This document shows, piece by piece, positions 1 through 18,991 of a DNA stretch of 32,000 bases. The notes beneath the pieces are model-generated. The model ran no database searches. It was given only the letters and a program-made list of their open reading frames with translations, and was not told the origin of the DNA. A program made the position numbers and the translations under genes. This DNA comes from Halomicronema hongdechloris C2206 (GTDB lineage Bacteria > Cyanobacteriota > Cyanobacteriia > Phormidesmidales > Phormidesmidaceae): the NCBI RefSeq assembly GCF_002075285.3, contig NZ_CP021983.2:360001-392000 (forward strand). Reading direction: 5' to 3'. The stretch's first letter is position 1. Each line of letters begins with the position of its first letter.

Positions 1-621
1 GGCGTGACGCCGGGTTTCACCCAGATGCAGATTCTCTATCGCGTAGTGCGGAGGCACCTCCTGTTGGGTGCGAGCCCCGAAGACGCTTGCAGGTTGGCCA
101 AGTACGAAGCCAGCTTTGGTGGCACCATGCGCGGGAATCTCGTTCGGATGCTGGACGAGCTCGGGGTGCCGGAACTCCTCGAGGTCGCATCCACCGCCGA
201 TCTCTTTGGTTCCAGTTCCCATCTTCTGCACACCACTTCGGCTGTTCGGTACCCGACGTTCCTCCACGGGCAGAACTACACTGGCAGTCAGCCGCGGCTC
301 GTGAGGTCCGCCTTCTTGATGCGATACGTTCGGGACGTTCTTGCGCCGGAGCTGTCCCGGCTCCATGCTGCAGTCTTCGTTCCACTCGGCAAGAGCGTCG
401 CCGAGGCCTTGGAGCTACTGGAGACCGAGCAGCGCATCCCGGCTGGTCGAACGCTACATGGATTCCCACATCCATCGGGCGCGAACGGTCACCGCGCGCG
501 GCAATTCGAGAAGGGGAAGCCCGCGATGAGGCGGCGGTTCGAGGAGATCTTGTGTGGAGGTGCCTCGGCGGGCGCTGTCCAACAACAGCATGCAGCGGAC
601 GGCGCTGCGCGCCGCCGCTGA
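1..621 (+). CDS. Uracil-DNA glycosylase superfamily-like protein, copy A, 5' end cut by window edge
   Basis: The reading frame is open from base 1. Its 205 aa are identical to the C-terminal 205 aa of ORF 6380..7183. UDG-superfamily-like motifs GVTPGF (motif 1, GxxPG type) and HGFPHPSGANG (motif 2, HPS type). Confidence 0.7.
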   Translation, partial: GVTPGFTQMQILYRVVRRHLLLGASPEDACRLAKYEASFGGTMRGNLVRMLDELGVPELLEVASTADLFGSSSHLLHTTSAVRYPTFLHGQNYTGSQPRLVRSAFLMRYVRDVLAPELSRLHAAVFVPLGKSVAEALELLETEQRIPAGRTLHGFPHPSGANGHRARQFEKGKPAMRRRFEEILCGGASAGAVQQQHAADGAARRR

Positions 622-636
622 TGCCACACGTTAGGC
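577..636 (+). other. attC-type recombination site (60 bp) of the UDG-like cassette, copy A
   Basis: Inverse core GTCCAAC (577-583, fits RYYYAAC) and core GTTAGGC (630-636, fits GTTRRRY). The arm GCAGCGGACGGCGC pairs with GCGCGCCGCCGCTG, leaving one unpaired A in the 5' arm. The site overlaps the stop codon of the ORF. Confidence 0.75.
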
Positions 637-664
637 GGCGCTCCGCGCACTCGGAGGTACGACC

Positions 665-955
665 ATGGAGCTCGTATTCGCCCTACTCGTTGTCGCGATT
701 CTCGCTAGCCTGCCTGCAGCCGTGCTCGTTGTTGGCGTCTTCACAGCTCACGCCAGGCCCGACTCGCCTCTGCTTCGGCACTGGCGGCTCGTTGCCACCG
801 TCGGTTTCTCGGCCTGGGCCTTGCTCACCCTGGTCTCGCACCTCTCCGACGCCCCTGGCTACACGGGCATCGGTTCCGGTCTTGGCATTCTCCTTTTGGT
901 GTTCGTCTTTATCGCCCGCTCCAGAGCTTCCACTCTCTCCTCGGGCACGGCATAG
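665..955 (+). CDS. Small hydrophobic membrane protein (96 aa, about 3 predicted TM segments), single-gene cassette
   Basis: ATG is preceded by GGAGG about 7 nt upstream. Three hydrophobic stretches (LVFALLVVAILASLPAAVLVVGVF, LVATVGFSAWALLTLV, GLGILLLVFVFIA). The ORF is bounded by attC sites on both sides. Confidence 0.55.
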   Translation: MELVFALLVVAILASLPAAVLVVGVFTAHARPDSPLLRHWRLVATVGFSAWALLTLVSHLSDAPGYTGIGSGLGILLLVFVFIARSRASTLSSGTA

Positions 956-976
956 CCGCCCAGGGTGCATCGCGCC

Positions 977-1145
977 GCCTAACAAGGCGCTGCAGCTGAC
1001 GAGCGCCACGGGAGTCGAATCGGTCCAACGCCGCCCAAAGCGCGCTCCGCGCGCAGGGCGGCTCGTGCCAGCTGGCGGCCACCTCCTGTGGCACAATCGG
1101 GGCTCCACCAGCGGCGCTCGCAGCTGAGCGCCTGATCCGTTAGCT
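977..1145 (+). other. attC-type recombination site, unusually long (169 bp)
   Basis: Inverse core GCCTAAC (977-983) and core GTTAGCT (1139-1145). The 5' arm GGCGCTGCAGCTGACGAGCGCC pairs with the 3' arm GGCGCTCGCAGCTGAGCGCC, leaving two unpaired bases in the 5' arm. The central part holds an extra GC-rich hairpin (GCCGCCC..GCGCGC / GCGCGC..GGGCGGC). Confidence 0.65.
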
Positions 1146-1246
1146 GTCTGCCTACAGCAAGCATCTACCTGTGGACGCTCCTGGAAGTTTGGGGCATCTT
1201 AGACTTATGCCTTAATCAGTTACCGCTGGAATGGAGTAGCTAGAGA

Positions 1247-2395
1247 ATGAGTAGCTCTGCTTACGAAGGGTTCAACGAAGAGAGCTTCTTCGACCGTGTT
1301 GAAGCTCAGTTTGTTAAGAAAGCCCCTAATTTGTCTCAGACGCTTAACATTGCCGTCATTGGAAAAGTCAGTGCGGGGAAAAGTTCCTTAATTAATGCCT
1401 TGCTTAAGCTGAGTCGTCGGCAAGCGTTAGAAATTGCTAAAGTTGGTGCCACATCAGGAGTAACTACTGATCTAACAATCCTCAAGCTAGATGAAAAAGT
1501 ACATCTTGTCGATTCCCCTGGGCTTGATGATGTTCGTACTGAGAATAGCGAGCTAACAAAGAAGTTTCTTAAGCATATAGATGTTGGTATATTTGTAGTA
1601 ACTGGCTCCTCAGATTCCTCACAAAAGAAAAACTTAGATGATTTGCGACAGCATTGCGATGCTATTTTTGTCGTCCTAAATAAAATCGATGAATGGGATG
1701 ACTTAGATCCATCTGTCTTAGAAGATATTATTCAACAGTGGAAGACTGATCTTGAAGTAGAGAAAATATACCCAACTTGTGCAAAGGGTTACGATCCTAA
1801 AAGTCGTCTCCCTACAATGGATATCAGAGGTGTTGCAAAACTCCGGAATGACATTGGGGATTTCCTTGAAAAAAAAGGTAAAGACCTATTGTTAGCTAGG
1901 CACATGGCCCAGAAACAATCTCATGCGGTTAAAATTATTGCAGTAGCTTTAGCCGCTGTAGCTGGAGAAGCTTTTATACCTGGTAGTGCCATTTATATTA
2001 CAGCTACGCAAGGAGCCGCAATTGCATCTCTGTCTTATCTTTATACTGGCGAAATCCTATCTGCTGAATCGACCCTAAGCATTTTACCTAAATTCGTTGC
2101 TGAGACAGCAGGCTCTAATCTTTTTCTGTTTGTAAAATCCTTCTTGCCTCCAACAGGTATCGTCGATGTCGCTGCTGCTGGAGTTGCAGTTGTCATTACG
2201 CTAGCATTGCTTGCGACAGTTAATTATCTACTTTCCAATGGAGAGGAGCTGGAGCAGGAAGAACTTCTGCGCTCCAAGTTTAGAACATATCATCAGCAAG
2301 CAAAAGATACTTTTAAGGAGTTGGCATTAACTGACGTGCGTGATCTTCCTAGCTGGACAAAACTTGTAAACAAGTTTCTTGGCAGTCGTCAATAA
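1247..2395 (+). CDS. P-loop TRAFAC-class GTPase (MMR_HSR1/YfjP-like) with a hydrophobic, DUF697-like C-terminal region
   Basis: G1 GKVSAGKS (Lys45), G3 DSPG and G4 NKID motifs occur in canonical order. The C-terminal ~150 aa is rich in Ala/Gly/Ile hydrophobic segments (AVKIIAVALAAVAGEAFIPGSAIYI..., GIVDVAAAGVAVVITLALLATVNYLL). GGAG-like RBS before the ATG. Confidence 0.8.
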   Translation: MSSSAYEGFNEESFFDRVEAQFVKKAPNLSQTLNIAVIGKVSAGKSSLINALLKLSRRQALEIAKVGATSGVTTDLTILKLDEKVHLVDSPGLDDVRTENSELTKKFLKHIDVGIFVVTGSSDSSQKKNLDDLRQHCDAIFVVLNKIDEWDDLDPSVLEDIIQQWKTDLEVEKIYPTCAKGYDPKSRLPTMDIRGVAKLRNDIGDFLEKKGKDLLLARHMAQKQSHAVKIIAVALAAVAGEAFIPGSAIYITATQGAAIASLSYLYTGEILSAESTLSILPKFVAETAGSNLFLFVKSFLPPTGIVDVAAAGVAVVITLALLATVNYLLSNGEELEQEELLRSKFRTYHQQAKDTFKELALTDVRDLPSWTKLVNKFLGSRQ

Positions 2396-2474
2396 TTGAT
2401 GTTCCTTACTTATTAGACCATATTCTGGATTTGACAATTTAATTGGGTTATTCTGAAAGCATTTTTAGAGTTAG

Positions 2475-3332
2475 GTGATGGAAGTAATGCCTAAACAGTA
2501 TCAACCTCAAGACCTGTTCGAAATTGTAGCTGATACCGTTATCAGTATAAAGACAAAGGATGGTTCTGGTAGTGGAGTTATTTTTAACAAAAATGGTATC
2601 GCGGTTACTAACAGACACGTTGTTGACACTAATACTAAAGCTCTAGTTGGCTTGAGAAACGGCGATAAGTTTATTGGTAAAGTCATTCGTTCGTATTCAG
2701 ATATTGATTTAGCCTTTGTAAAATTTGACTTAACTAAGTCTTCATTGCTCAGATCTTCTCTAATTTTTTCTGGTGAAGACTTTAGCCCATGTTGCCAGCG
2801 GAAACTTAAAGTTGGGGAGCCTGTGTTTGCAATTGGTCATCCAATGGGTCTTGACTATACCCTGACTCAGGGCATCATTAGTTCTATAGAAAGAACAATT
2901 GAGGCGGCTAAGTTTATTCAAATAGATGTGTCTATTAATCCCGGCAACAGTGGTGGTGCCCTTTACACAGCTTATGGAGAATTGGCTGGTATCAATACAA
3001 TGGGTTACGTGAATTCAGAACATCTAAATTTTGCCATACCCATTGATGAAGTGGTTAAACGATATTCTACTTGGCTTGAAGAAGAGGCTAAAGGATTTAC
3101 ACGCTATTGTGCAGTGTGTGGTTTCTCATCCATTGACGATAAATATTGTGAGAATTGTGGTGCTTCTCTCAAAAGAGATTCTAGTCAAGAAGATGATTTT
3201 TTAAGCAAATCAGATCTTGCAGAAGACGTGAAGATGAGTATGAAAAGTGATGCCTTGGCAACTTGCAAAGCTTGCGGGACATCTGTTTCATCAAGTCTCA
3301 AATATTGTTCAACCTGTGGTTCTACTTTATAA
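2475..3332 (+). CDS. Trypsin-like (S1/DegP-type core) serine protease without signal peptide or PDZ, with two C-terminal zinc ribbons
   Basis: Catalytic triad context TNRH48VV, D78LAFVKF and NPGNS159GGAL. The C-terminus carries CAVC-x11-CENC and CKAC-x11-CSTC. The start may be the ATG at 2478. Confidence 0.85.
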   Translation: MMEVMPKQYQPQDLFEIVADTVISIKTKDGSGSGVIFNKNGIAVTNRHVVDTNTKALVGLRNGDKFIGKVIRSYSDIDLAFVKFDLTKSSLLRSSLIFSGEDFSPCCQRKLKVGEPVFAIGHPMGLDYTLTQGIISSIERTIEAAKFIQIDVSINPGNSGGALYTAYGELAGINTMGYVNSEHLNFAIPIDEVVKRYSTWLEEEAKGFTRYCAVCGFSSIDDKYCENCGASLKRDSSQEDDFLSKSDLAEDVKMSMKSDALATCKACGTSVSSSLKYCSTCGSTL

Positions 3333-3349
3333 AAGTGAGTTGAGGTAAT

Positions 3350-3856
3350 ATGGGAATTTTTGGGGATTTAATTGAAGGGGTTGGTAGCCTTCTAGGAAAC
3401 AAGCAAGATAACGAGGTTTCAGTTGGAAGCTATATTCAAATTGTAGAAGCTTTACTTAAAGAACTTGGCGTAGATATCAAAGAGTCTAGACTTGACCTTG
3501 AATCTAAAAATGACAGGGGTTGGGTAATTCAGAAAGGTAGTGCCCAGATCATTATTCTGATAGCAGAAAATGATGAAGACGATGATCCTACTATAGAAGT
3601 GGTTTCACCCATTCTGAAACTTCCCTCTCAAAACATTCTGCCGTTTTATCGCCGATGCCTTGAACTCAATAGAGGTTTGATTGGATGTGCTGTTTGTGTC
3701 AGTGAAGATAAGGTTTTGGTGAGAGCAGAAATACCTCTCAGCGGTCTAAGTCTGGAAAGTATTGCATTGATGATCTTTAATGTCGCAGGAGCGGCAGATC
3801 AACTAGATGATGAACTAGCAGAAGAGTTCGGTGCTAAGTTATACGATGAATCCTAA
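3350..3856 (+). CDS. YbjN-like (type III secretion chaperone-like fold) small acidic protein
   Basis: ATG lies 17 nt after the protease stop, with a GAGG RBS. The sequence pattern resembles the YbjN family (WVIQKGSAQIIILI...IEVVSPILKLP...LPFYRRCLELNRGLIGCAVCV...DKVLVRAEIPL...ADQLDDELAEEFG). The call is by eye only. Confidence 0.6.
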   Translation: MGIFGDLIEGVGSLLGNKQDNEVSVGSYIQIVEALLKELGVDIKESRLDLESKNDRGWVIQKGSAQIIILIAENDEDDDPTIEVVSPILKLPSQNILPFYRRCLELNRGLIGCAVCVSEDKVLVRAEIPLSGLSLESIALMIFNVAGAADQLDDELAEEFGAKLYDES

Positions 3857-3971
3857 ACCACAAATTGACCGTGGTTGATTGCTAAGACTATCACTTGGTA
3901 GCAATTTCATTTTGGATAGACAATATTCACGTTGCCCCTATTTTATTGTGCCCCTTAGCCGAGTCCAAACT

Positions 3972-4250
3972 ATGCAAATCACCCTCGACTTACCTGAAGA
4001 ACTGCTTCAATACTTTGATCAAGATCACCTTTCTCGTGAAATTTTAGAGGCATTAGCGGTACAAGCCTATCAAACTGAAAAAATTACTAGTGCTCAAGTT
4101 GGTCGTATTCTGGGTCTACCCTCTCGCTGGGCAGTGGATAGCTTTTTGAAGCAACATTGTGCCTATTTACATTACGATGAGACAGACCTGGAGAGCGATC
4201 GTGAAACCCTTCGCCAACTTCGTGCGAATCGAGCTAATAGCGCCTCATGA
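3972..4250 (+). CDS. UPF0175-family antitoxin-like protein
   Basis: The ATG at 3972 is preferred over the TTG at 3879. MQITLDLPEELL...EALAVQAYQTEKITSAQVGRILGL is typical of UPF0175. It overlaps the downstream gene by 4 nt (ATGA). Confidence 0.75.
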   Translation: MQITLDLPEELLQYFDQDHLSREILEALAVQAYQTEKITSAQVGRILGLPSRWAVDSFLKQHCAYLHYDETDLESDRETLRQLRANRANSAS

Positions 4251-4717
4251 TCGCCGTCTCTGATACTTCGCCAGTTAATTATTTGCTGCTGATTGACCAG
4301 ATTGATCTGCTTCCTCGCTTGTTTCAGCAAATCATCATTCCCGATGTGGTTCGGAAGGAAATGCTTGATCCCTTGGCACCACCTGCCCTTCAACAATGGA
4401 TTACTCATCCTCCTTCTTGGCTTACAGTCCAAACTGTTTCCGGGGTTGATACAACCCTCAATGCCCTTGATCCAGGAGAACAAGCTGCCATCACCCTTGC
4501 TCAAACCTTGCCAGCAGATTTGCTGATTATCGATGAACGATTGGGAAGACGTGTCGCTAGCGATCGGGGAATCCCGATTATCGGCACCCTTGGAATTCTA
4601 GATGATGCCGCAAGTCAAGGGTTGATAGAACTAGCAGATGCAATCGCTCGATTGCAACAGACGAATTTCCGTATTTCTCGTCGCATTATTCAAACATTGC
4701 TGGAAAATAGAGCATAG
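4247..4717 (+). CDS. DUF3368 / PIN-like nuclease toxin-like protein
   Basis: N-terminal VSDTSPVNYLLLI and C-terminal DPGEQAAITLAQ...LLIIDERLGRRVA...GIPIIGTLGIL match the DUF3368 PIN-like pattern. It is translationally coupled to the UPF0175 gene. Confidence 0.75.
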   Translation: MIAVSDTSPVNYLLLIDQIDLLPRLFQQIIIPDVVRKEMLDPLAPPALQQWITHPPSWLTVQTVSGVDTTLNALDPGEQAAITLAQTLPADLLIIDERLGRRVASDRGIPIIGTLGILDDAASQGLIELADAIARLQQTNFRISRRIIQTLLENRA

Positions 4718-4747
4718 TACAAGTAGGTAGGGTCGGCGAGGAAAGCC

Positions 4748-4833
4748 AGCTAACACTGCGTGGCAGCGGACGGGCGAAAGTCACTGGTTTTAAGTTCAAG
4801 GTTGCCTGCCGCCGCTGCACTTCACCGTTAGCT
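4748..4833 (+). other. attC-type recombination site (86 bp)
   Basis: Inverse core AGCTAAC (4748-4754) and core GTTAGCT (4827-4833). The arm GCAGCGG-A-CGG pairs with CCGCCGCTGC, with an unpaired A. It is near-identical in layout and length to 6258..6343. Confidence 0.75.
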
Positions 4834-4910
4834 GTCATACGCTCTAGGCTCAGCGGGTGCTACCAACACGAATGAATGTGTAGACAGTTTGCTCAGTTAA
4901 GCTAAAATTC

Positions 4911-5687
4911 ATGAATGCTGCTGGTCAGGATGAGCGATCACTGATAATGGAGACTTCTCTAGTTCATTACGTTGAAAAGACTGATCTAATCAACAAGACA
5001 GAAATTGAAAAAGTTATATTGTTAGCCTCTTACTATCAAAGAAATGGTCAGAATGATTTTGAGTTCACAATAGAGTCTGTGTGCAATTGGTTTGAAACTT
5101 TAGGTTTACATAAACCGAATAAGTCAAGACTGAAACAAAAAATTAGCAAATCTCGTTCTTTTGTTAAGGGGAAAACTAAAAATTCTTATAGAATCCACGC
5201 CAGCGAAATTCAAGCTATTTATAAAAAATATCCTTTTTTGGAAGAGCCATCTGAGGAAATACTATCAACTGATACGATTTTGCCCGCTCCCCTATATGAA
5301 AATACACGTGGATATATAGAATCTTTATCCAAACAAATCAATGCCTCCTACGAGAATAATATATTTGATGGATGTGCAGTTTTAATGCGAAGACTTCTAG
5401 AGATATGCTTAATTCACTCATATGAACATCAAGGCATTGATTCAGAAATAAAAGACTCTCAAGGGAATTATGAAGTACTTTCTAAAATTGTTTCTAATGC
5501 TTTGAATAATTCGAAGCTCTCCCTTTCAAGAAATACCAAAACTTGCTTGGAGGATTTTCGTGCGATTGGGAATTATTCTGCACATAAGATTTATTATAAC
5601 GCAAGAAAAACGGATATAAAGAAGGTGGTTTTAGAGTATAGGGCAACGATTGAGGAGTTACTGTACAAAAGTGGAATTCGAACATAG
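4911..5687 (+). CDS. Hypothetical protein with an N-terminal wHTH-like module and a C-terminal DUF4145-like domain
   Basis: The C-terminal pattern CAVLMRRLLEICL...LEDFRAIGNYSAHKIYY...IEELLY resembles DUF4145. The N-terminal ~100 aa is similar to the C-terminus of the next ORF. Confidence 0.6.
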   Translation: MNAAGQDERSLIMETSLVHYVEKTDLINKTEIEKVILLASYYQRNGQNDFEFTIESVCNWFETLGLHKPNKSRLKQKISKSRSFVKGKTKNSYRIHASEIQAIYKKYPFLEEPSEEILSTDTILPAPLYENTRGYIESLSKQINASYENNIFDGCAVLMRRLLEICLIHSYEHQGIDSEIKDSQGNYEVLSKIVSNALNNSKLSLSRNTKTCLEDFRAIGNYSAHKIYYNARKTDIKKVVLEYRATIEELLYKSGIRT

Positions 5688-5691
5688 GGCA

Positions 5692-6228
5692 ATGGAACCA
5701 AGTATTTCAGCGAAGGCGAAAATAAATTTCAAAACTGGCGAGGTTGAATTCGAAGGATCGGAACAGTTTGTAGAAAATCAGCTTAATAATATAGATACCA
5801 TTGCAGAATATATGGCGCTTCTTATATCTAATAATTCTACAGATGAAGTAGACGAAATTGAGCAAGAAGAGATAGCGGCTGTTGCAGAAGAAGAAGAAGA
5901 AAAGTTGGTGACAGTTGGTGAGCAAGATCTTCATGTTCCAGATACTTTTGGTGAGTGGTTTCATGGCTTTAAGGATGATGCCAATGATCTCGACAAGGCG
6001 CTTATCACAGCTTTTTATGTGCAAAAACAAGCACCAGATAATGACTTCAAAACATCTGAAGTTAATCAGTCTTTGCAAGATCATGGCATTAAGCTTTCAA
6101 ACCCCTCAAGCTCATTGAAGCGATTAGCCTCTAAAAAACTACTTTTTCAAACCCGGAAAGTAGGAAAGCTAAAATACATGAGAGTATCTGCAGACGGCGT
6201 TAAGCATCTTAAAACGCTACGAAGATAG
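5692..6228 (+). CDS. Hypothetical acidic protein with a C-terminal wHTH-like module
   Basis: The ATG at 5692, 4 nt after the upstream stop, is preferred over the overlapping TTG at 5650. There is a poly-acidic tract (DEVDEIEQEEIAAVAEEEEE). The C-terminus ALITAFYVQKQAPDNDFKTSEV...LKRLASKKLL aligns by eye with residues ~35-100 of ORF 4911..5687. Confidence 0.55.
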   Translation: MEPSISAKAKINFKTGEVEFEGSEQFVENQLNNIDTIAEYMALLISNNSTDEVDEIEQEEIAAVAEEEEEKLVTVGEQDLHVPDTFGEWFHGFKDDANDLDKALITAFYVQKQAPDNDFKTSEVNQSLQDHGIKLSNPSSSLKRLASKKLLFQTRKVGKLKYMRVSADGVKHLKTLRR

Positions 6229-6257
6229 CATTGCTATTCCTAAGTGATCCTAAAACC

Positions 6258-6343
6258 AGCTAACACTACGTTGGTGCGGATGGAACAGAGGTTATCGGTT
6301 AGAGTTCAGGGTTGTCTGCCGCCGCACAACTTCACCGTTGGAC
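6258..6343 (+). other. attC-type recombination site (86 bp)
   Basis: Inverse core AGCTAAC (6258-6264) and perfect core GTTGGAC (6337-6343). The arm GTGCGG-A-TGG pairs with CCGCCGCAC, with the same unpaired A. Confidence 0.75.
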
Positions 6344-6379: not shown

Positions 6380-7183
6380 ATGAGAGAAGTGCTATCTGAA
6401 CACCTAGCCACGTTCATCCGGTCCCTCCCGGAGAAGCGCGAGTACGCCCGCGACGATCTTCTCGTTCCTGCGCTGAAGGTCGCCGAGGATGCCGACAAGG
6501 GGCTTGCCGTGTACGACGCTCCGTTCGGCTGGGGCAACCAAGAAGCGCGTGTGGCCCTGATTGGCGTGACGCCGGGTTTCACCCAGATGCAGATTCTCTA
6601 TCGCGTAGTGCGGAGGCACCTCCTGTTGGGTGCGAGCCCCGAAGACGCTTGCAGGTTGGCCAAGTACGAAGCCAGCTTTGGTGGCACCATGCGCGGGAAT
6701 CTCGTTCGGATGCTGGACGAGCTCGGGGTGCCGGAACTCCTCGAGGTCGCATCCACCGCCGATCTCTTTGGTTCCAGTTCCCATCTTCTGCACACCACTT
6801 CGGCTGTTCGGTACCCGACGTTCCTCCACGGGCAGAACTACACTGGCAGTCAGCCGCGGCTCGTGAGGTCCGCCTTCTTGATGCGATACGTTCGGGACGT
6901 TCTTGCGCCGGAGCTGTCCCGGCTCCATGCTGCAGTCTTCGTTCCACTCGGCAAGAGCGTCGCCGAGGCCTTGGAGCTACTGGAGACCGAGCAGCGCATC
7001 CCGGCTGGTCGAACGCTACATGGATTCCCACATCCATCGGGCGCGAACGGTCACCGCGCGCGGCAATTCGAGAAGGGGAAGCCCGCGATGAGGCGGCGGT
7101 TCGAGGAGATCTTGTGTGGAGGTGCCTCGGCGGGCGCTGTCCAACAACAGCATGCAGCGGACGGCGCTGCGCGCCGCCGCTGA
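6380..7183 (+). CDS. Uracil-DNA glycosylase superfamily-like protein, copy B (full length, 267 aa)
   Basis: ALIGVTPGF and HGFPHPSGANGH motifs are spaced as in UDG-fold enzymes. It is a GC-rich single-gene cassette between attC 6258..6343 and attC 7139..7198. Confidence 0.7.
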   Translation: MREVLSEHLATFIRSLPEKREYARDDLLVPALKVAEDADKGLAVYDAPFGWGNQEARVALIGVTPGFTQMQILYRVVRRHLLLGASPEDACRLAKYEASFGGTMRGNLVRMLDELGVPELLEVASTADLFGSSSHLLHTTSAVRYPTFLHGQNYTGSQPRLVRSAFLMRYVRDVLAPELSRLHAAVFVPLGKSVAEALELLETEQRIPAGRTLHGFPHPSGANGHRARQFEKGKPAMRRRFEEILCGGASAGAVQQQHAADGAARRR

Positions 7184-7198
7184 TGCCACACGTTAGGC
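6563..7198. repeat. Direct repeat copy B, matching 1..636
   Basis: Same evidence as for copy A. Divergence begins at 7199, the target duplication flanking the IS4-like element. Confidence 0.9.
7139..7198 (+). other. attC-type recombination site (60 bp) of the UDG-like cassette, copy B
   Basis: Identical to 577..636: GTCCAAC ... GTTAGGC. Confidence 0.75.
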
Positions 7199-7205: not shown

Positions 7206-8507
7206 GCTGACTGCCTGACACATCTTTTACTCTAGTCGGCAGGATAGAGAGCGGATGCGAGAGAACCAGATTTGGTCGTAATAGTCGTGCTCCGCTTTTT
7301 TGGAGGCAAAACAAGGCTCTGGGTCACGGACTAACAGCGCTATCGGCTCTAGAAGCTGTCGTCCTTTGTGAACGACTCCCTTAAGCCAGCGCAATCCAAT
7401 CTTGAGGTAGCTGAGTCCGCGCCGCCAATGAGGGTCTACCTGCTGCCTAAGGCCTTCAATCTGAACCGCCATGCCAGTGGTTGTTCCATAAAGCAGTGCA
7501 ATAGCGGCCACTAGATAAAGTCGCTCAAGGGCTACCGCTGAGCGGATTCGGGAGTCTTCAATCTCGAAAGCTCCTGATTTGCTATCCAAAAACAGCTCCT
7601 CTACTCTGAAACGCAACGCGTAGCGCCAGAGCGTCTGCAAGGTAGGCGGTTCATCGGTGATGACGGCCCAAGGCTCTTTGACGCCTTTAAGCGTCGCCAG
7701 CACGATGTTGCACTGGTGGGAGCCATCCTGCCACAGCCTGACATTTCGATAGAAAATCGCCTCGCCTTTTGGCGGCCACAGATATCTCACTTCAGTCGGA
7801 TAACGCCTTGGCCCGTGCAGCAGGACATCGCAGGGCACTCGCAAGCAGTAGTGCCAACTGCTCGCTTGCAACCAACTCATCAAGTCGTGGTTGGCAAAGC
7901 CTCGGTCGGCCAGCAGCATTAGGTTCGGGTACTGCCTCAAAAGCCACCGGGCACGGCGCAGCAAAGGGCGGTATTCTTCAAAAGCCACCGTTGCACTGCC
8001 ATGCTCAAGCACTCGCCACAGTAGCGGGACTGCTCGTCCGCAGCACACCACTGACAGGTGAATCATGCAGTATTGGTTCCACAGCACCGTTGTATCGAGT
8101 GCCAGATACAGCCGCTTGCCCTCCCACTGCCTCAGCGTCAGCAGCACCAGCGGTAGGTAGAGCTGATTTATCTCAACGAGCCGGTTGCCGAAAAATCGAT
8201 GCCACCGCCGCTCGAAGCTTTGCGCTTTGTTGGCACGGCTTATCACGTAGGACTCCCAAGCAGGTGGGCTCAGCTCACCACTACAAATCAGGGCGGTGAC
8301 CATCCAAGATAGGGCTTTGATATGGCGCAAGTCCCGGTAGTGGCTGTATTGACGCAGATAGTGCAGCAGTTGATCATAGAGCTGGGTAGAGCTTGGCATG
8401 TCGCTTTGGCCGTCAGTGTGGTAACTACAGCCTCGCACACGAGCTCTGCCTATTTCCTCTTTGTCCTGATATGACTACCTTTCAGCTACTTCTGTCAGGC
8501 ACTCAGC
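7206..8507 (-). mobile_element. IS4-superfamily insertion sequence (~1.3 kb)
   Basis: Terminal inverted repeats GCTGACTGCCTGACA (7206-7220) and the reverse complement of 8493-8507, GCTGAGTGCCTGACA (14/15 match). It is flanked by the direct repeat TTCTCAT(G) at 7199-7205(6) and 8508-8514(5). It encodes a single DDE transposase ORF. Confidence 0.8.
7227..8438 (-). CDS. IS4-family DDE transposase
   Basis: 403-aa ORF (390 aa from the ATG at 8399). LALDTTVLW, LLADRGFANHDL and later acidic motifs are typical of IS4/IS701-like DDE transposases. Confidence 0.8.
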   Translation of the reverse strand: MRGCSYHTDGQSDMPSSTQLYDQLLHYLRQYSHYRDLRHIKALSWMVTALICSGELSPPAWESYVISRANKAQSFERRWHRFFGNRLVEINQLYLPLVLLTLRQWEGKRLYLALDTTVLWNQYCMIHLSVVCCGRAVPLLWRVLEHGSATVAFEEYRPLLRRARWLLRQYPNLMLLADRGFANHDLMSWLQASSWHYCLRVPCDVLLHGPRRYPTEVRYLWPPKGEAIFYRNVRLWQDGSHQCNIVLATLKGVKEPWAVITDEPPTLQTLWRYALRFRVEELFLDSKSGAFEIEDSRIRSAVALERLYLVAAIALLYGTTTGMAVQIEGLRQQVDPHWRRGLSYLKIGLRWLKGVVHKGRQLLEPIALLVRDPEPCFASKKAEHDYYDQIWFSRIRSLSCRLE

Positions 8508-8514: not shown

Positions 8515-9800
8515 GGGCACCTCGAAAAATAGCCAGAGCGATCTCAGTATGAGATCATAAGGTCGGTTTTGTTGAAGCACGCAGGCCATGGGACAGCAGG
8601 GATTCTGGGATATCGAAGAGCGCCAGCAAAAACTGGAGCAAAAGAAGGCGGTACTGAATCGGTTGAATCAACTGGTGCCGTGGGAGACCTTTCGTCCGAT
8701 TCTGATGCAGATTCGAGAGAAACCGCGCAAAAGCCAGGCCGGTCGTAACCCCACCGATGTCCTGTTACTCTTCAAGATGCTGGTGCTGCAAAAGCTATAC
8801 AACATCAGCGATGACGAACTGGAATATCAGGTCAACGACCGACTGTCCTTCATGCAATTTCTCGGTTTGGGGCTTGAGGATAGAGTCCCGGATGCAACGA
8901 CGGTGTGGCTCTTCCGAGAACAGTTGCAGCAGCACGGCTTGGTGGAGGCGTTGTTCGAGCAGTTTGGAGCCTATCTGCAAGGGGCAGGCTATGCCGCCAA
9001 GGATGGGCAAATTGTGGATGCGACCTTGATTCCAGTTCCCAAACAACGCAACACCCGTGAGGAGAACCAAACCCTCAAGCAGGGTGAGGTTCCCGTTGAG
9101 TGGCAAGAGACCCCTCATCAGCTCGCGCAAAAAGATGTTGACGCCCGATGGACGAAGAAAAATGGAACGTCCCACTACGGCTACAAAAACCACATCAATA
9201 GTGATGCCGGCTTTAAGCTCATTCGCCGTTACAGCGTCACCGATGCGTCGGTCCATGACTCGCAGGTCTTGGGCGAGTTGCTCGATGCGGATAATAGCGG
9301 CGATGGACTTTGGGCCGATAGTGCGTATCTCTCCGTGCTGATTGTCGAGGTGCTGAAATTGATAGGGTTTGAGCCGCATATAAATGAACGGGCCTATCGC
9401 AATCGCCCCTTAAGCGAGGCCCAGAAAACCGCGAATCGAGAGCGCTCCAAAACCCGTGCCAGAGTGGAGCACATCTTCGGAGATGTCGTCACCAGCATGG
9501 GTGGCAAGGTGGTGCGCAGCATCGGGTTAGCCCGTGCCCAGACCCAGCTAGGTCTGAAAAATCTGGTGTATAACCTGAAGCGGTTTGTGTGTCTCGAAAC
9601 CCAACGTGCTGCATCGGCTGAACTGGCAAGATAATCGGACCTAAAGCCGGGAAATCGACTTAAACGTGGTCTTCCAACCCTATTTTTTTGTCAAAATGGG
9701 AAGCTTTTTTCGGTGGAATGTCTCGGACTCTCTTTGAGTCACCTTGACGGTCTCAAATGAGACGCCATTAGCTAAAGAAAACTGATTAATCGAGGTCCCC
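8515..9800 (+). mobile_element. IS5-family insertion sequence, copy 1 (1286 bp)
   Basis: IRL is GGGCACCTCGA and the reverse complement of the right end is GGGGACCTCGA. The 4-bp direct repeat TCAT lies at 8511-8514 and 9801-9804. It appears identical to 11791..13076. Confidence 0.85.
8588..9634 (+). CDS. IS5-family transposase (DUF772 N-terminal domain plus DDE domain)
   Basis: The 348-aa sequence ...GRNPTDVLLLFKMLVLQKLYNISDDELEYQVNDRLSFMQFLGL... is the typical IS5 N-terminal region. It is identical to ORF 11864..12910. Confidence 0.9.
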   Translation: MGQQGFWDIEERQQKLEQKKAVLNRLNQLVPWETFRPILMQIREKPRKSQAGRNPTDVLLLFKMLVLQKLYNISDDELEYQVNDRLSFMQFLGLGLEDRVPDATTVWLFREQLQQHGLVEALFEQFGAYLQGAGYAAKDGQIVDATLIPVPKQRNTREENQTLKQGEVPVEWQETPHQLAQKDVDARWTKKNGTSHYGYKNHINSDAGFKLIRRYSVTDASVHDSQVLGELLDADNSGDGLWADSAYLSVLIVEVLKLIGFEPHINERAYRNRPLSEAQKTANRERSKTRARVEHIFGDVVTSMGGKVVRSIGLARAQTQLGLKNLVYNLKRFVCLETQRAASAELAR

Positions 9801-9845
9801 TCATGTTATAGGAAAATACAAAATAACAACCTTTAAGCACTAAAG

Positions 9846-11048
9846 ATGTCGTCAATTTGGATAATTCTTCTGGACGTTTCCAGTTCTATGAATGAAGGCT
9901 TCTCTGGCAGAGGAGCAACTGATCCTCTAGCAGAACGAGGTGCTTGGCGAACAAAGCTGGAGGCTGCTTCAGAGCTTTTACTGCGCCAGATTGCTTCTAT
10001 ACGTGATCAAGATGTTGCAGTTATTAAGTTCGCTGATCAGGCTGAAAAGATTTTTCAAGGACATCAAAGTGCTTTCTCTCCATCTTCCTTTAGTGTCCTT
10101 CAAGGTGGTGGACGTACTAATCTTACTGCGGCGCTCAATATTGTTGCGATTGATTCTTCGTTCAATCGATATCGTGCACTTAGTGTGCTTATACTGTCAG
10201 ATGGATTAGCAAATATTGGGAACCCTCAAATAGAAGCTGAGCGAATAATTGAGAGATACCCTTTTGCACGAATAGACACCATCCTGATTGATGAAACTGA
10301 TCAAGGACGAGCAATTGCTGAAAGTGTCTCTATTAATGGTTCTGTTCGAAATGCTGTCTCTATTCTACAACTTCAAGATTCTGTTGAGAGAGCCCGTGTA
10401 GCTGGTCTTCAGCAAGAGATTAGTGGTTTAGCGCAGCGACAGCTTGCACTTGAGAGTGAACTGTCTGCAATCGCCAATGTTTCTACACCGACATTACTAA
10501 CTGTAACTTCTCAAGTCTCTCTCACGCCTTCTTCCTTGCGAGATCAAATCTCACCATTTCTCACTGGAATAGAAGAGATACAAGAGGTTGCATCTACTGC
10601 GTCAGGTGCTTCTTATCGAGGTCGTATACGTTCTATATCACAAAGCTCTCCTGTCTCGATCTCTTTATCAGGTCTGCGTGAAGCAGTAGAGCTTTTTCTT
10701 GAGTGGATAGTACCTTGGCGTAGAGAGCATGTTGAGCAGATGCTAGTGCTTCAACGAAGGCGGGAAGAGCTTGAACAAAGGAAGCTTGAAATGGATTTAG
10801 GTCGTGAGAATGCAGAGCTTGATGCTCTTGAGCTTTCAAATCGCCGTCTTGAACTTGAACTTCTTACTTCCAAGCTAGAACTTGCAGAAAGATTACTCAA
10901 TCATCTTGACCCTAACGAGAATATGTCGGGATCTGAGCGAGTTGCTTATGTTCAAAAGCTTGTTGGTAGCATAGATCGTCTCGCAAGTAATAGACTCGAA
11001 TTTCAAGCATCCGGCCCAGGCTTTGAGTCCAGGTCAAATATCCAGTAA
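9846..11048 (+). CDS. von Willebrand factor A (vWA) domain protein with a long C-terminal coiled-coil
   Basis: MIDAS motif D10-V-S-S-S14, followed by GGRTNLTAAL and ILSDGLAN. The C-terminal ~200 aa are heptad-like and Leu/Glu-rich (LELELLTSKLELAERLL). Confidence 0.75.
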   Translation: MSSIWIILLDVSSSMNEGFSGRGATDPLAERGAWRTKLEAASELLLRQIASIRDQDVAVIKFADQAEKIFQGHQSAFSPSSFSVLQGGGRTNLTAALNIVAIDSSFNRYRALSVLILSDGLANIGNPQIEAERIIERYPFARIDTILIDETDQGRAIAESVSINGSVRNAVSILQLQDSVERARVAGLQQEISGLAQRQLALESELSAIANVSTPTLLTVTSQVSLTPSSLRDQISPFLTGIEEIQEVASTASGASYRGRIRSISQSSPVSISLSGLREAVELFLEWIVPWRREHVEQMLVLQRRREELEQRKLEMDLGRENAELDALELSNRRLELELLTSKLELAERLLNHLDPNENMSGSERVAYVQKLVGSIDRLASNRLEFQASGPGFESRSNIQ

Positions 11049-11112
11049 TAATAATGATTTCAGCTTGCAAACCAGAGAGGTATAAGTGCTAACAATTATA
11101 GAACCTTGGTAT

Positions 11113-11202
11113 GCCTAACAATTTCTTGCAGGCGGACGCGAAGGCAAAAGGTTCGGACTTTTCCGAAAGATGGTCTCGCGCCGCTGAAGATTACCGTCAG
11201 GC
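11113..11202 (+). other. Degenerate attC-like site (90 bp), last of the array
   Basis: Inverse core GCCTAAC (11113-11119). The arm GCAGGCGG-A-CGCGA pairs with TCGCGCCGCTG. The core position reads GTCAGGC (11196-11202) rather than GTTRRRY. Confidence 0.55.
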
Positions 11203-11790
11203 TACTCAATAACCACCAGAGGATTGGCCATGGGTACTTTTGCACAGAAATCAAGGGCAACTCAGCAGATTACATCTGCCAAGCCTGCGATCAAGCCTAC
11301 GATATCCAGTCGGATCCAGCGGCATGAGTTGCCCCCGCAGTGTCATCGTCCACATCCAGGAGCACTACAGACGAAACTCACGATCGACCAGCCTGGAGAC
11401 ATCTATGAACAGGAGGCAGATCGTGTTGCGAACCAAGTGATTCGCATGCCTGATCCCAAGCTGCAGCGCACCTGTGCCTGTGGTGGTGGCTGTCCCCAGT
11501 GTCAGGCACAGCGACCGGAGCAGAAACCAATGCGCCTACAACTGCGGCGCCTTCAGTCGAACAACGAGGAACAGATTTCAGCACTGCCCATCGTCCACGA
11601 AGTATTGCGCTCACCCGGCCAGCCCCTGGATGCCCACACCCGCAGCTTTATGGAGCCACGTTTTGGGCATGATTTCAGCCAAGTGCGAGTGCACACGGAT
11701 GCGAAGGCGGCAGAGTCAGCACAAGCGATCAATGCGCAGGGGTATACAGTGGGCCAGCACGTTGTCTTGGATAACGACCGATTATCTTCA

Positions 11791-13076
11791 GGGCACCTCG
11801 AAAAATAGCCAGAGCGATCTCAGTATGAGATCATAAGGTCGGTTTTGTTGAAGCACGCAGGCCATGGGACAGCAGGGATTCTGGGATATCGAAGAGCGCC
11901 AGCAAAAACTGGAGCAAAAGAAGGCGGTACTGAATCGGTTGAATCAACTGGTGCCGTGGGAGACCTTTCGTCCGATTCTGATGCAGATTCGAGAGAAACC
12001 GCGCAAAAGCCAGGCCGGTCGTAACCCCACCGATGTCCTGTTACTCTTCAAGATGCTGGTGCTGCAAAAGCTATACAACATCAGCGATGACGAACTGGAA
12101 TATCAGGTCAACGACCGACTGTCCTTCATGCAATTTCTCGGTTTGGGGCTTGAGGATAGAGTCCCGGATGCAACGACGGTGTGGCTCTTCCGAGAACAGT
12201 TGCAGCAGCACGGCTTGGTGGAGGCGTTGTTCGAGCAGTTTGGAGCCTATCTGCAAGGGGCAGGCTATGCCGCCAAGGATGGGCAAATTGTGGATGCGAC
12301 CTTGATTCCAGTTCCCAAACAACGCAACACCCGTGAGGAGAACCAAACCCTCAAGCAGGGTGAGGTTCCCGTTGAGTGGCAAGAGACCCCTCATCAGCTC
12401 GCGCAAAAAGATGTTGACGCCCGATGGACGAAGAAAAATGGAACGTCCCACTACGGCTACAAAAACCACATCAATAGTGATGCCGGCTTTAAGCTCATTC
12501 GCCGTTACAGCGTCACCGATGCGTCGGTCCATGACTCGCAGGTCTTGGGCGAGTTGCTCGATGCGGATAATAGCGGCGATGGACTTTGGGCCGATAGTGC
12601 GTATCTCTCCGTGCTGATTGTCGAGGTGCTGAAATTGATAGGGTTTGAGCCGCATATAAATGAACGGGCCTATCGCAATCGCCCCTTAAGCGAGGCCCAG
12701 AAAACCGCGAATCGAGAGCGCTCCAAAACCCGTGCCAGAGTGGAGCACATCTTCGGAGATGTCGTCACCAGCATGGGTGGCAAGGTGGTGCGCAGCATCG
12801 GGTTAGCCCGTGCCCAGACCCAGCTAGGTCTGAAAAATCTGGTGTATAACCTGAAGCGGTTTGTGTGTCTCGAAACCCAACGTGCTGCATCGGCTGAACT
12901 GGCAAGATAATCGGACCTAAAGCCGGGAAATCGACTTAAACGTGGTCTTCCAACCCTATTTTTTTGTCAAAATGGGAAGCTTTTTTCGGTGGAATGTCTC
13001 GGACTCTCTTTGAGTCACCTTGACGGTCTCAAATGAGACGCCATTAGCTAAAGAAAACTGATTAATCGAGGTCCCC
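11791..13076 (+). mobile_element. IS5-family insertion sequence, copy 2 (1286 bp)
   Basis: Same ends as copy 1. The 4-bp direct repeat TTCA lies at 11787-11790 and 13077-13080. ORFs in three frames are identical to those of copy 1. Confidence 0.85.
11864..12910 (+). CDS. IS5-family transposase (copy 2)
   Basis: The protein is identical to ORF 8588..9634. Confidence 0.9.
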   Translation: MGQQGFWDIEERQQKLEQKKAVLNRLNQLVPWETFRPILMQIREKPRKSQAGRNPTDVLLLFKMLVLQKLYNISDDELEYQVNDRLSFMQFLGLGLEDRVPDATTVWLFREQLQQHGLVEALFEQFGAYLQGAGYAAKDGQIVDATLIPVPKQRNTREENQTLKQGEVPVEWQETPHQLAQKDVDARWTKKNGTSHYGYKNHINSDAGFKLIRRYSVTDASVHDSQVLGELLDADNSGDGLWADSAYLSVLIVEVLKLIGFEPHINERAYRNRPLSEAQKTANRERSKTRARVEHIFGDVVTSMGGKVVRSIGLARAQTQLGLKNLVYNLKRFVCLETQRAASAELAR

Positions 13077-13895
13077 TTCAGGAAGTGGACGTGCCCGTTT
13101 TTTGATGGCCCATGAATTGGCCCATGTTGTGCAGCAAGGTGGTGCTCTTGCCAGGCATGGAGACCACAGGATTGAACCGGCAGCCCAGGGATCCAGCCAT
13201 AGAATCCAACGACAGTCCCCATCGCCGCCTACTAGCGAGAGAGTCTGGGGACTACCCGTCACACGCAGTATGTGTGGATGCCGCCAGCAGGTGCGGGATG
13301 GAATTAATTGGGCCAATACCGCAGCGGCGACCTATGCCGCCTGTGACGTTCCGGCCAATCCGACCAACGTCGATGTTGAAGCCTGCTTCGATGCCGCCCA
13401 TCCCGGTACTACCGTAGCTGGCTCCACCAGTGCCAGTGGCACAATGACGCTACCACCGCCATCGGCTGATCCCTGCCAGCGCATCGATGACAAAGCTACC
13501 TTCGTCCATGAGACCATGCATGCTCGCCATACGAATGACATCGCGCGGGCTCAAGGAGCAGCTTTCTTCCGCGAGTGGAAGCGGCTGGCAGGAGTCCCCA
13601 ATCGGCTAGATACCCTGCGGGCTACCTTCCCCGCTGAAGTAGCAGCCTTCGAAGCCCAGTGGCAGGACGGCCACGACTGGGCCCAGGACGAGGTGAATTC
13701 TTACCGCTGGGAGCGTCGGTTTTTGCAAGCCGCCCTGGCTGCCCTGAATCGTATCTGTCCGTAGCCTTGAACCTTATCGGTTGCTCTACTAAAGCTGTGG
13801 GACCCGATGCTGTCTATGCGCCGACCCTGTCTTCTATCCACCGTCACCTTCCCGGCACCATGGAGCAGTCCCTGGTAGCGTGAGAGGACCCCACT

Positions 13896-14201
13896 ATGTC
13901 AGACAATAACAACAATGACGAAGATGTGGTGCTGCGTGGTGTCATCACCGCGCTAAGGCCACAGCGCGGTCCCCACCCGCACTTGAAGTGGGTGGCCGTC
14001 CTAGACGTTGATGCCGTCATGGCAGGGCAGTTCTCTGGTCAGACCTTTGCCTTCCACATCCATAGCCCTACAAAGTCTGGCATAGCTGTCGGCGGGCAGT
14101 ACGTGATACGGATGACACGCACCCCCGCCGGAGAGTATCTCCTCAGGGCCATTGAACCCTGGAAAGATGGGCCCCCGTCGCAGTTAGAAAATGGGACCTG
14201 A
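13896..14201 (+). CDS. Hypothetical small protein (101 aa) downstream of the DUF4157 gene
   Basis: An ATG ORF preceded by GAGG, on the same strand and 131 nt after the DUF4157 stop. I recognise no motif. Confidence 0.4.
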   Translation: MSDNNNNDEDVVLRGVITALRPQRGPHPHLKWVAVLDVDAVMAGQFSGQTFAFHIHSPTKSGIAVGGQYVIRMTRTPAGEYLLRAIEPWKDGPPSQLENGT

Positions 14202-14324
14202 GCCCAACTGTTCTGCTGACCTGACGTTCTGTTAAGTAGCAGGGCTCGATTAACTGTAAGATGGCGAACGCTGTACCCCATCCCCAGCATAGAAAGCGCC
14301 TGTAGTTTGATTCTGCCCAGCTAC

Positions 14325-18800: not shown

Positions 18801-18991
18801 GCCCGCACCAGCCTCAACAGCAGTGGGGCCTGAGGCAGGGACTCCGGGGTTTCGCAGAGAACGTGGAGAATATTACCCCGCAGCTTCAGTCTCAACTCTA
18901 GCTCAGGCTGATCTAGCGCCTGGTGAAACCAGGTTACCAGGCCCGTAGCCGGGGCTGGGTGCATAGCCGATGGGGGACGCTTAGCAGCCAT
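15806..18991 (-). CDS. Large protein (1061 aa) with a C-terminal DUF1574/SGNH-like domain, partner of the MBOAT
   Basis: The C-terminal region (VLIMGSSRALRGVDP, FNFGVNGATAQ, LILWADGARAFN, SDPSHLNRYGAY) looks like the DUF1574 family commonly found next to MBOAT genes. There is a TM segment (IAMVWAVVGLLLTV) mid-protein. The N-terminal half has recurring ...LHV/LHL... modules. Confidence 0.7.
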   Translation of the reverse strand: MAAKRPPSAMHPAPATGLVTWFHQALDQPELELRLKLRGNILHVLCETPESLPQAPLLLRLVRALLRQGGVQLIQQLYPHVYQLYLYHRVTAQEQPDWTAPLYLNRLERHLAQLVLQTQDPKDIQAAQGLLQAHPDELMADHDAGDGAIVLSQLSLARQGDPEAVAWYLSETLSALDVGVWVSIKAVPGQAHISSDIVQFGPPPPVQVSNGQGPVIPRLWVLCQATYSPDPALIAQPTAERLRQLELTQFKDAVLLLQVQGEAKPDWRLRIDLTPPQEMLREWARWGHAEAIRRLVQAALTAAGLAMTVTASRKDTTLHLIGQGEADPLPSAETVLELLQPLLDGLAPQGLHRALLYGQTATAEMPDWVQGVDLPGADHPALAVSARTLAAEADLPALAFLLTQQLNPQLDDYLATGGIRVQLLIRNQLLHVMLDGPLCPVRSHVAPIVGQLLKRLRPQGIIGVRLYGRRAGQSQPTWSGGFDFQARQRLVPEATPEFAASDSYVGELLAPPEAEVQPAEAAPDTLGHTLRQWAATAVTGVQKGLLHSHLFASRSTPGQQPLRAGGDWRIAMVWAVVGLLLTVQADWLLGELLSSPPAATAEANETADQQDPGGAVDPEAAAFEEALDDLEWGADDPRADRFVAEPFATSPPAGARDATDQPPASPTGPLVATSILLEASPYPSFRSEQLNEKLALYHQRLQLEDPPDVLIMGSSRALRGVDPTALEEELAALGYEGIEVFNFGVNGATAQVVELIIRRLLPPDYLPRLILWADGARAFNSGRVDITYNGIATSEGYRQMVRGTLPHDTPEEAGETDPEAAAAAPGEDPAADIAVTSQGIGEQLRSSYQQMDQWLSDQLGTLSAVHPERQRLKEWLQAGLVTLTTPPSQDPAAPPPADGPSDPLDAPLPEGSHIDFDGFLPLSVQFNPATYYQKHARVSGYYDSDYRSFRLEGRQAEAFQRLLQFTQSQDIPLVFVNTPLTDEYLDPYRLDAETQFLQYMVRLSGQEEGFIFRDLAQIWPEEYDYFSDPSHLNRYGAYQVSTRLAQDPMIPWPEPMPETTP
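17662..17669. repeat. HIP1 octamer GCGATCGC
   Basis: Exact match read in the sequence. Confidence 0.9.

Follow-up and report, generated by a model that had tools for sequence, protein, structure and literature searches.

A rare protease and chaperone-fold gene pair within a composite integron cassette of Halomicronema hongdechloris

HtrA-type proteases (DegP, DegS, HhoA), chaperones of the YbjN and type III secretion system (T3SS) class I kinds, and conflict systems built around a GTPase are the closest described relatives of three adjacent genes that we analysed in a 32,000-nt stretch of Halomicronema hongdechloris C2206, here called the window (all window coordinates count from its position 1). 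The genes encode a GTPase, a serine protease and a chaperone-like protein. TY-Chap1, one of the families matched by the chaperone-like protein, was defined beside ADP-ribosylglycohydrolase-centred (ARG-centric ADP-ribose) systems (PMC9503650), and the YbjN family is reported to give pleiotropic stress phenotypes in E. coli (PMC3181261). In DO-GTPase/GAP1 systems, which lie in mobile conflict loci, a GTPase switch is combined with peptidases (Kaur et al. 2020, PMC7159879); the same paper states that cyanobacteria almost lack them. Integrons are also already known to carry composite cassettes, toxin-antitoxin cassettes and defence genes.

An initial annotation of the window had proposed the three genes as a candidate conflict module. 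On the sequence comparisons described below, the protease–chaperone pair is a real, rare two-gene unit, apparently undescribed and built from known parts. The trio as a whole, in contrast to the pair, is very probably not a conserved unit. The three genes and their main parts are:

1247-2395, + strand: GTPase (module 1), 382 aa, membrane-anchored TRAFAC type; G domain at residues ~30-215, C-terminal hydrophobic domain at residues ~215-382
1889-2392, + strand: DUF697-like C-terminal domain of the GTPase, with transmembrane-like segments at residues ~226-248 and ~303-330
2475-3332, + strand: HtrA-type serine protease of cytoplasmic type (module 2a), 285 aa from GTG; triad H48/D78/S159
3108-3329, + strand: two C-terminal zinc ribbons of the protease, C212/C215/C225/C228 and C264/C267/C278/C281
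3350-3856, + strand: TY-Chap1/YbjN-fold chaperone-like protein (module 2b), 168 aa, assigned from Pfam, PDB 2plg and AF2/Foldseek

The three open reading frames (ORFs) are placed as first annotated, all on the + strand and separated by 79 and 17 nt.

The protease–chaperone pair

The protease domain occupies residues ~26-202, and the protein matches Pfam Trypsin_2 (1.3e-24) and DZR (3.5e-06). In an alignment of 25 protease homologues the catalytic triad is invariant (H47/D77/S158 in a 284-aa numbering, corresponding to the H48/D78/S159 of the initial annotation), as are seven of the eight ribbon cysteines, the eighth being nearly so. Because the triad and the ribbon cysteines are invariant or nearly so, the protease is probably active. 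As the homologues begin MPKQ, translation probably starts at the ATG at 2487, which would give a protein of 281 aa. The alignment, Pfam and hydropathy together bear out the earlier view that the protein has a full His/Asp/Ser triad, lacks a signal peptide and a PDZ domain, and is not a periplasmic HtrA. Indeed, Pfam found no PDZ domain, and the protein has no signal peptide, transmembrane segment or hydrophobic N-terminus (maximum 19-residue Kyte-Doolittle mean 0.85). The two zinc ribbons had also been recognised correctly, but not their spacing of x11 between the CxxC motifs: the first reads CxxC-x9-CxxC (212-228) and the second CxxC-x10-CxxC (264-281). Between the ribbons lies a linker of ~35 residues, which is disordered, acidic and variable in the same alignment.

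The best PDB matches of the protease are Synechocystis HhoA, Deg1 and DegS (4e-27 and weaker). With HtrA, DegP, DegS and HhoA it shares the chymotrypsin-fold protease domain and the GNSGG serine motif; unlike them, it has two zinc ribbons in the place of PDZ domains and an obligate chaperone-fold partner. Its scores against the HtrA-type equivalogs of NCBIfam are far under the cut-offs (145.8 versus 416.2). We therefore rejected membership of the HtrA/DegP family, the protease domain being the only part that matches, without PDZ domain or export signal.

The chaperone-like protein scores above the Pfam cut-offs for both TY-Chap1 (PF22551; 40.2 bits, cut-off 27) and YbjN (36.1 bits, cut-off 22), and matches PDB entry 2plg at 2.2e-10. 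Its AF2 model (pLDDT 83.5) has a predicted alpha-beta3-alpha-beta2-alpha fold, for which Foldseek returned 2plg (TM-score 0.68/0.75), followed by E. coli YbjN, ExsC and SycT, and also SigE and CesT; the closest solved structures are those of the non-secretory YbjN family, 2plg and 6vu7. The profile, PDB and model comparisons thus all agree with the YbjN/T3SS-chaperone-like fold first proposed for this gene. The protein shares profile match and fold with the TY-chaperone superfamily (YbjN, T3SS class I chaperones and TY-Chap1). It differs from the TY-Chap1 proteins of ADP-ribose systems in that its partner is a trypsin-like protease and that no ADP-ribose-processing genes are nearby. In the literature we found no paper linking YbjN-like or TY-Chap proteins to a trypsin-like protease.

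We looked up homologues of the protease (42-85% identity) and of the chaperone on their own contigs, which gave ten contexts outside the window clade (locus handles L081-83, L084/85, L086/87, L168, L169/170, L171, L172, L173/174, L175/176 and L177). With the window clade included, the chaperone gene lies directly 3' of the protease gene, on the same strand and after a gap of 4-20 nt, in 11 of 11 distinct contexts, over which protease identity ranges from 42 to 98%. The identities of protease and chaperone to the window copies are strongly correlated (r = 0.97). No third gene is common to the 11 contexts. The initial annotation had asked whether the protease and YbjN-like genes are conserved neighbours of the GTPase; they are conserved neighbours of each other, so that two of the three proposed genes form a real unit, but not of the GTPase, which is solo in most of its loci.

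The pair is rare, with ~45 protease clusters and 31 chaperone clusters among 5.8 billion proteins, and patchily distributed over Cyanobacteria, Chloroflexi and metagenomes. The longest contigs of the chaperone clusters and of the protease clusters agree one-to-one in size, which indicates that the two proteins co-occur one-to-one. The link between them is further supported by a natural fusion, a metagenomic protein of 366 aa (L089, 368-1468) that combines Trypsin_2, a single zinc ribbon and a C-terminal domain matching the chaperone hidden Markov model (HMM) at 3e-9. This fusion was the only chaperone-like case among the matches listed (80 loci) from a metagenome scan with the protease alignment, which otherwise held generic proteases of 31-44% identity; the protease motifs INPGNSGG and GHPxGL are common to all HtrA proteases.

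The pair sits in mobile or conflict-like surroundings: the integron cassette of the window, a region rich in insertion sequences (IS; L168), a prophage-like region with Bro-N and VRR_NUC (L172), an island with Mrr, toxin-antitoxin genes, XisHI and an NB-ARC protein (L173), and a vWA/TerY operon ending in a polymorphic-toxin cassette (L171). In a distant branch of the pair, a gene for a TPR protein follows the chaperone gene after 11-24 nt (L169 4361-5650, 429 aa; L175 5195-6007, 270 aa); this protein may be a lineage-specific third component.

The GTPase and the anatomy of the cassette

The first gene encodes a GTPase, 100% identical to a protein of H. hongdechloris C2206, with the motifs G1 GKVSAGKS (39-46), G3 DSPG (89-92) and G4 NKID (145-148), all invariant in a 15-member family alignment. 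It matches Pfam MMR_HSR1 (3.9e-16) and Dynamin_N (4.8e-14), and its nearest relatives by G domain, which is a TRAFAC-class one, are bacterial dynamin-like proteins and the EngA and YlqF groups. The C-terminal ~160 residues contain two strongly hydrophobic segments (Kyte-Doolittle 19-residue mean up to 2.5), so that the early description of a complete set of G1/G3/G4 motifs followed by a hydrophobic C-terminal part was accurate, with two transmembrane-like segments by hydropathy. The AF2 model of the GTPase has a pLDDT of 68; Foldseek matched its G domain alone (EF-Tu, IRG, mitofusin and BDLP; TM-scores 0.3-0.4) and found no structural relative of the C-terminal domain.

A Pfam search with the window GTPase and its close relatives gave no direct DUF697 match. 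An exhaustive phmmer search with the C-terminal domain returned 74 representative clusters (at 50% identity), many of them short fragments; the longer matches mostly have the domain at the C-terminus of a protein of ~360-460 aa. Three of 20 divergent homologues of this domain match Pfam DUF697 (best E 8.4e-12). In addition, hhalign of the GTPase family profile against an MMR_HSR1+DUF697 protein found in L086 gave 98.5% probability (E 2.6e-15) over 317 columns spanning both domains. These distant matches and the profile alignment make the window GTPase a divergent member of the GTPase-DUF697 architecture (MMR_HSR1 + PF05128), with which it shares the layout of a G domain followed by a C-terminal hydrophobic domain. 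Compared with the proteins annotated as such in Pfam, the window subfamily is compact (~74 clusters) and itself lies below Pfam detection of DUF697. In the DUF697 literature we found incidental mentions only, and no function for the GTPase-DUF697 group. E. coli YcjX/YcjF would be a split analogue, with NTPase and DUF697 parts on separate proteins.

We surveyed the occurrence of the GTPase by scanning one genome per species with the family alignment, and kept 58 loci (36-100% identity), a few of them partial at contig ends. They span Cyanobacteria, Alpha-, Beta- and Gammaproteobacteria, Bacteroidota, Actinomycetota, Bdellovibrionota and Parcubacteria. The protease lies beside the GTPase in only two of the 58, L001 (a contig of a metagenome-assembled genome) and L002 (Phormidium sp. 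FACHB-1136; GTPase 93% identical to the window's). A third case is a short metagenome contig, L181 (GTPase 93%, protease 89%). The juxtaposition is thus confined to one shallow clade, with GTPases at least 93% identical to that of the window, and the synteny expected of a conserved three-gene system failed at this point. Every other GTPase locus (about 50 loci without the pair) lacks a match to the chaperone HMM. No neighbour of the GTPase is conserved between groups of related genomes over the 58 loci. Among 140 flanking proteins from 41 non-redundant contexts, Pfam showed mainly unrelated housekeeping proteins and no dominant family; other dynamin-like GTPases were the commonest (5 of 140).

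Comparison at the DNA level shows the modules apart from one another in relatives of the window. L045, whose GTPase is 92% identical, matches window positions 1159-2382 only, i.e. the GTPase, and there an attC site ending caccGTTAGCc directly follows the GTPase stop codon, which makes the GTPase a single-gene cassette in that locus. By blastn, L084 and L085 match 2486-3856 only, i.e. the protease and chaperone genes, and L081 matches 2481-4458, which comprises the pair and the toxin-antitoxin genes downstream of it without the window GTPase. In L179 the genes that come after an 85%-identical GTPase are small and unrelated. This separate occurrence indicates that the cassette is a fusion of three modules. 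Its limits and remaining features are:

978-1145, + strand: upstream attC-like site, long and GC-rich, part of the preceding cassette; ends ccGTTAGC^TGTC, the caret marking the cassette start
about 1140-4829, + strand: composite integron cassette, 3.69 kb, five genes, GC content 0.415; placed from the match to L001 and the attC cores
3969-4250, + strand: UPF0175 antitoxin-like protein (module 3a); Pfam UPF0175 3.7e-17
4247-4717, + strand: DUF3368 (PIN-like) toxin-like protein (module 3b); Pfam DUF3368 1.3e-10, PADLOC candidate PDC-S70 1.7e-48
4742-4832, + strand: attC site of the cassette itself, R'' AGCTAAC and R' GTTAGCT; same direct-repeat family as 6252-6339

Window positions 1138-4831 are 98.2% identical to positions 7892-11585 of L001 (blastn). 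The identity starts just past a GTTAGC core and stops at a GTTAG core; the 3' core of the upstream attC was aligned with those of the other attC sites. Upstream, L001 has an attC of another sequence, and its downstream DNA is unrelated to that of the window. The breaks of identity at the cores and the differing flanks of L001 show an integron cassette moving as a unit. Both ends carry attC sites with complementary cores, as integron cassettes do, the core being a variant of the consensus. On the bottom strand, the attC at 4744-4832 forms a hairpin in which a bulge separates an R stem of 7 bp from an L stem (-18.3 kcal/mol, z -1.55, an unexceptional energy); the attC of L045 folds similarly (z -1.21), and the site at 6254-6342 folds poorly (z -0.11). 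A strict regular-expression search for attC recovered only 4748-4833, the remaining sites having imperfect cores.

The GC content of the three genes is 0.39-0.41, versus 0.64 in window positions 1-1000 and 0.57 in 13000-32000. Together with the L001 match over the whole unit, this confirms the original description of AT-rich genes inside a single cassette. In a promoter and terminator scan of the cassette, counts were not above those of shuffled sequence. The cassette resembles those of chromosomal integron arrays in being bounded by attC sites, in having a second array position with its breakpoint after the G of GTT, in a GC content unlike that of the host and in carrying toxin-antitoxin genes. 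It differs from typical cassettes in that no attC separates the three modules and that its core is GTTAGCT, where the textbook form is GTTRRRY. Five genes and 3.7 kb are unusually large for an integron cassette. The 79-nt spacer between the GTPase and protease genes (2396-2474) contains cttATTAGACCat, similar to the GTTAGACC core that opens the GTPase cassette in L002 and L045. The resemblance may mark a relic of the lost attC or be coincidental.

The UPF0175 and DUF3368 genes overlap by 4 nt (4247-4250), the start of the second lying on the stop of the first, and both domains of a type II toxin-antitoxin layout are present. This toxin-antitoxin pair probably stabilises the cassette.

Described defence systems and other sequences in the window

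The statement that no named defence system matches the three genes was upheld by PADLOC, which returned only partial matches to the G domain and the protease domain. For the GTPase these were LeoA (7.7e-17) and LeoBC (4.8e-10), covering the G domain only (positions 55-268 of 559 in the LeoA profile). Like the Leo proteins of Eleos, the window GTPase is a membrane-associated GTPase; unlike them, it has 382 aa, versus profiles of 559-601 positions, and no LeoBC partner. Eleos was rejected, as the NCBIfam LeoA/HP0731 model scores 34.1 bits versus a cut-off of 325 and the cassette has no second dynamin-like gene. The PADLOC match of the protease to RT-Protease_XI is to the protease part of that profile (342-506 of 510), and the cassette has no reverse transcriptase ORF; we therefore rejected a type XI retron with its reverse transcriptase-protease. 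DO-GTPase/GAP1 was rejected too, since the window GTPase matches Pfam DO-GTPase2 at E = 0.049 over 28 residues and there is no GAP1-like gene. Pfam applied to the trio and its five neighbours, a set that includes every gene of the cassette, revealed no gasdermin, CHAT or caspase gene.

A GTPase homologue of 59% identity is encoded at 7001-8152 of L178 (NC_019741.1, plasmid pMIC7113.05 of Allocoleopsis franciscana). Its gene has HTH and PadR regulator genes on one side and a block of type I restriction-modification, ParDE, nucleotidyltransferase and Abi genes on the other. Most chromosomal copies of the GTPase lie in ordinary neighbourhoods. The GTPase could have a part in defence, but this is not indicated.

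Several other parts of the window deserve mention. Positions 1-636 are an exact 636-bp duplicate of 6563-7198 and hold most of a 267-aa ORF, complete at 6380-7183, that resembles the UDG superfamily weakly (Pfam E = 0.0054). After the attC at 6252-6339 comes the second copy, which an IS transposase gene (7227-8438, minus strand) truncates at 7199; the duplicated stretch seems to be one cassette present twice in the array. The cassette at 4833-6340 encodes a 258-aa protein with weak DUF4145 similarity (4911-5687) and an overlapping acidic protein of 192 aa (5650-6228), neither with a match in PADLOC, NCBIfam or PHROGs; its terminal attC is 74% identical to the attC at 4742-4829. Further downstream, two identical 1287-bp IS copies (8515-9801 and 11791-13077), each encoding a transposase of 348 aa (DDE_Tnp_1/DUF772), lie on either side of a vWA_2 gene (9846-11048) and a gene for an eCIS_core-domain protein (11224-11808). 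This IS-bracketed arrangement (8515-13077) looks like a composite transposon. Finally, a HerA-type ATPase gene (HAS-barrel + DUF87, 23891-25615) follows an unannotated ORF of 178 aa (23271-23807), and the two could be a HerA-based defence pair (23271-25615).

Proposed roles and alternative explanations

Overall, we lean towards an explanation that joins a composite cassette of three modules with a gated-protease mechanism for the pair. The chaperone would probably be translationally coupled to the protease. T3SS class I chaperones and ExsC grip extended polypeptide segments of their partners, and by analogy with them the chaperone-fold protein may bind the disordered tail between the ribbons of the protease, or a client protein. 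Such binding would hold back or target an otherwise active cytoplasmic protease, and the pair would form a self-contained conflict or addiction module of a toxin-antitoxin-like or abortive-infection-like kind. The GTPase would most likely have a role of its own at the membrane; cassette fusion in one recent lineage, with loss of the attC of the GTPase cassette, would have placed it beside the pair. The gating and conflict mechanism taken by itself, which we derive by analogy, is tentative and on the doubtful side. In function, the pair would probably be a conflict or addiction module.

The following observations weigh against this explanation. The GTPase-protease junction has been kept over ~16% nucleotide divergence, the window and L002 forming one continuous alignment, and it recurs in L181. 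GTPases of other families adjoin the pair in two further contexts (L081-83/L177 and L086/87), and that of L086 is, by hhalign, a full-length remote homologue of the window GTPase. The 32-kb window has no Phage_integrase-family ORF and hence no intI (Pfam scan of 26 ORFs, including every non-nested one of at least 120 aa); the cassette array here may be the distal part of an integron or an integrase-less attC cluster. Neither PADLOC nor PHROGs has a match for the chaperone or for the pair as such. A tblastn search of phage and plasmid collections with the chaperone and IMG/VR scans for it found no family members, and an IMG/VR scan for the GTPase family also found none; these results give no support to a phage-borne origin. 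Lastly, the conflict or addiction role is read from gene context.

The points on the GTPase bear on whether it belongs with the pair after all. In the contexts L081 (1504-5616) and L177 (1819-5893), genes for a Dynamin_N protein of ~730 aa, a DO-GTPase2 protein of ~325 aa and a protein of ~295 aa lie directly upstream of the pair, with outer flanks that differ between the two loci. None of these three proteins matches PADLOC, and the ~295-aa protein has no family match; the 297-aa proteins that L081 and L171 encode upstream of the pair showed no homology to each other. The three may be an undescribed cyanobacterial GTPase system. The presence of a DO-GTPase2 protein, and the theme of a GTPase with a peptidase, recall the DO-GTPase systems, from which the window locus differs in showing no GAP1, GASH or FNIII component. 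In L086/87 the MMR_HSR1+DUF697 protein is encoded beside the pair on the convergent strand.

It is conceivable from these arrangements that the pair is an effector unit working with an interchangeable membrane GTPase as its switch or sensor, a softened form of the model first proposed for the window. The three window genes are co-directional and closely spaced (79 and 17 nt), the GTPase-pair composite is kept in the window, L001, L002 and L181, and a GTPase lies within one to three genes of the pair in three of ~10 independent contexts, among them the L086 GTPase with its remote full-length homology and the Dynamin_N/DO-GTPase2/295-aa genes with their differing outer flanks; chance adjacency of a GTPase would be expected, by a rough and post hoc estimate, in a few percent of contexts. 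However, the other seven of ~10 contexts have no GTPase nearby, ~50 loci of the GTPase family lack the pair and any chaperone-HMM match, and the 92%-identical GTPase of L045 is a complete single-gene cassette. Besides being estimated post hoc, the enrichment is made up of GTPases of different families, and conflict genes cluster in islands; co-location in islands could by itself yield it if such GTPases are common in filamentous cyanobacteria. We expect that GTPase-based conflict systems and DUF697 GTPases are plausibly common there. We consider such a linked switch unlikely. Only slightly more credit, and still little, goes to a wider form of it, in which the pair would be an undescribed abortive-infection or toxin-antitoxin-type conflict system whose chaperone holds the protease inactive or, as a sensor, releases it and which recruits interchangeable GTPases (DUF697-type in the window and L086, dynamin-like plus DO-GTPase2 in L081 and L177), the window being a three-part version.

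A housekeeping role is less probable again. The pair would then be a cytoplasmic quality-control protease with its holdase and the GTPase a factor of membrane homeostasis, and neither would take part in conflict. The protease core is indeed closest to the quality-control proteases HhoA, DegP and DegS, YbjN-family proteins are reported to have stress phenotypes in E. coli (PMC3181261), and the neighbours of the GTPase family are mostly ordinary metabolic genes, its chromosomal position being stable within a genus, e.g. Microcoleus. Against it stand the rarity (~45 protease and 31 chaperone clusters) and patchy distribution of the pair, its carriage here on a low-GC mobile cassette and its position elsewhere beside IS elements and prophage-like, restriction and toxin-antitoxin genes; for the GTPase, there are also the plasmid copy bordering a type I restriction-modification/ParDE/Abi island and the cassette in L045. 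Export of the protease as an effector escorted by the chaperone-fold protein is very improbable: the top structural matches include T3SS class I chaperones solved with their effectors (SicP-SptP, SycE-YopE, CesT-Tir), but the closest structures are those of the non-secretory YbjN family (2plg, 6vu7), T3SS or other secretion genes stand beside the pair in 0 of 11 contexts, and cyanobacteria are not known to have a T3SS.

With the composite cassette as the preferred explanation, the locus shows that a functional operon should not be read from the tight spacing of genes in a single integron cassette, since cassettes can fuse unrelated modules, and that DNA-level comparison with relatives resolves such fusions quickly. 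Through the GTPase, a compact subfamily that has spread horizontally is connected to the GTPase-DUF697 architecture, which is uncharacterised. The protease–chaperone pair is a clean unit: it is rare, keeps its active site, is always paired, and is found in mobile or defence-type neighbourhoods. Should it turn out to serve in defence or addiction, the known repertoire would gain a protease effector whose gate is a T3SS-chaperone-fold protein, and one branch of the YbjN superfamily, itself poorly understood, would have its first function.

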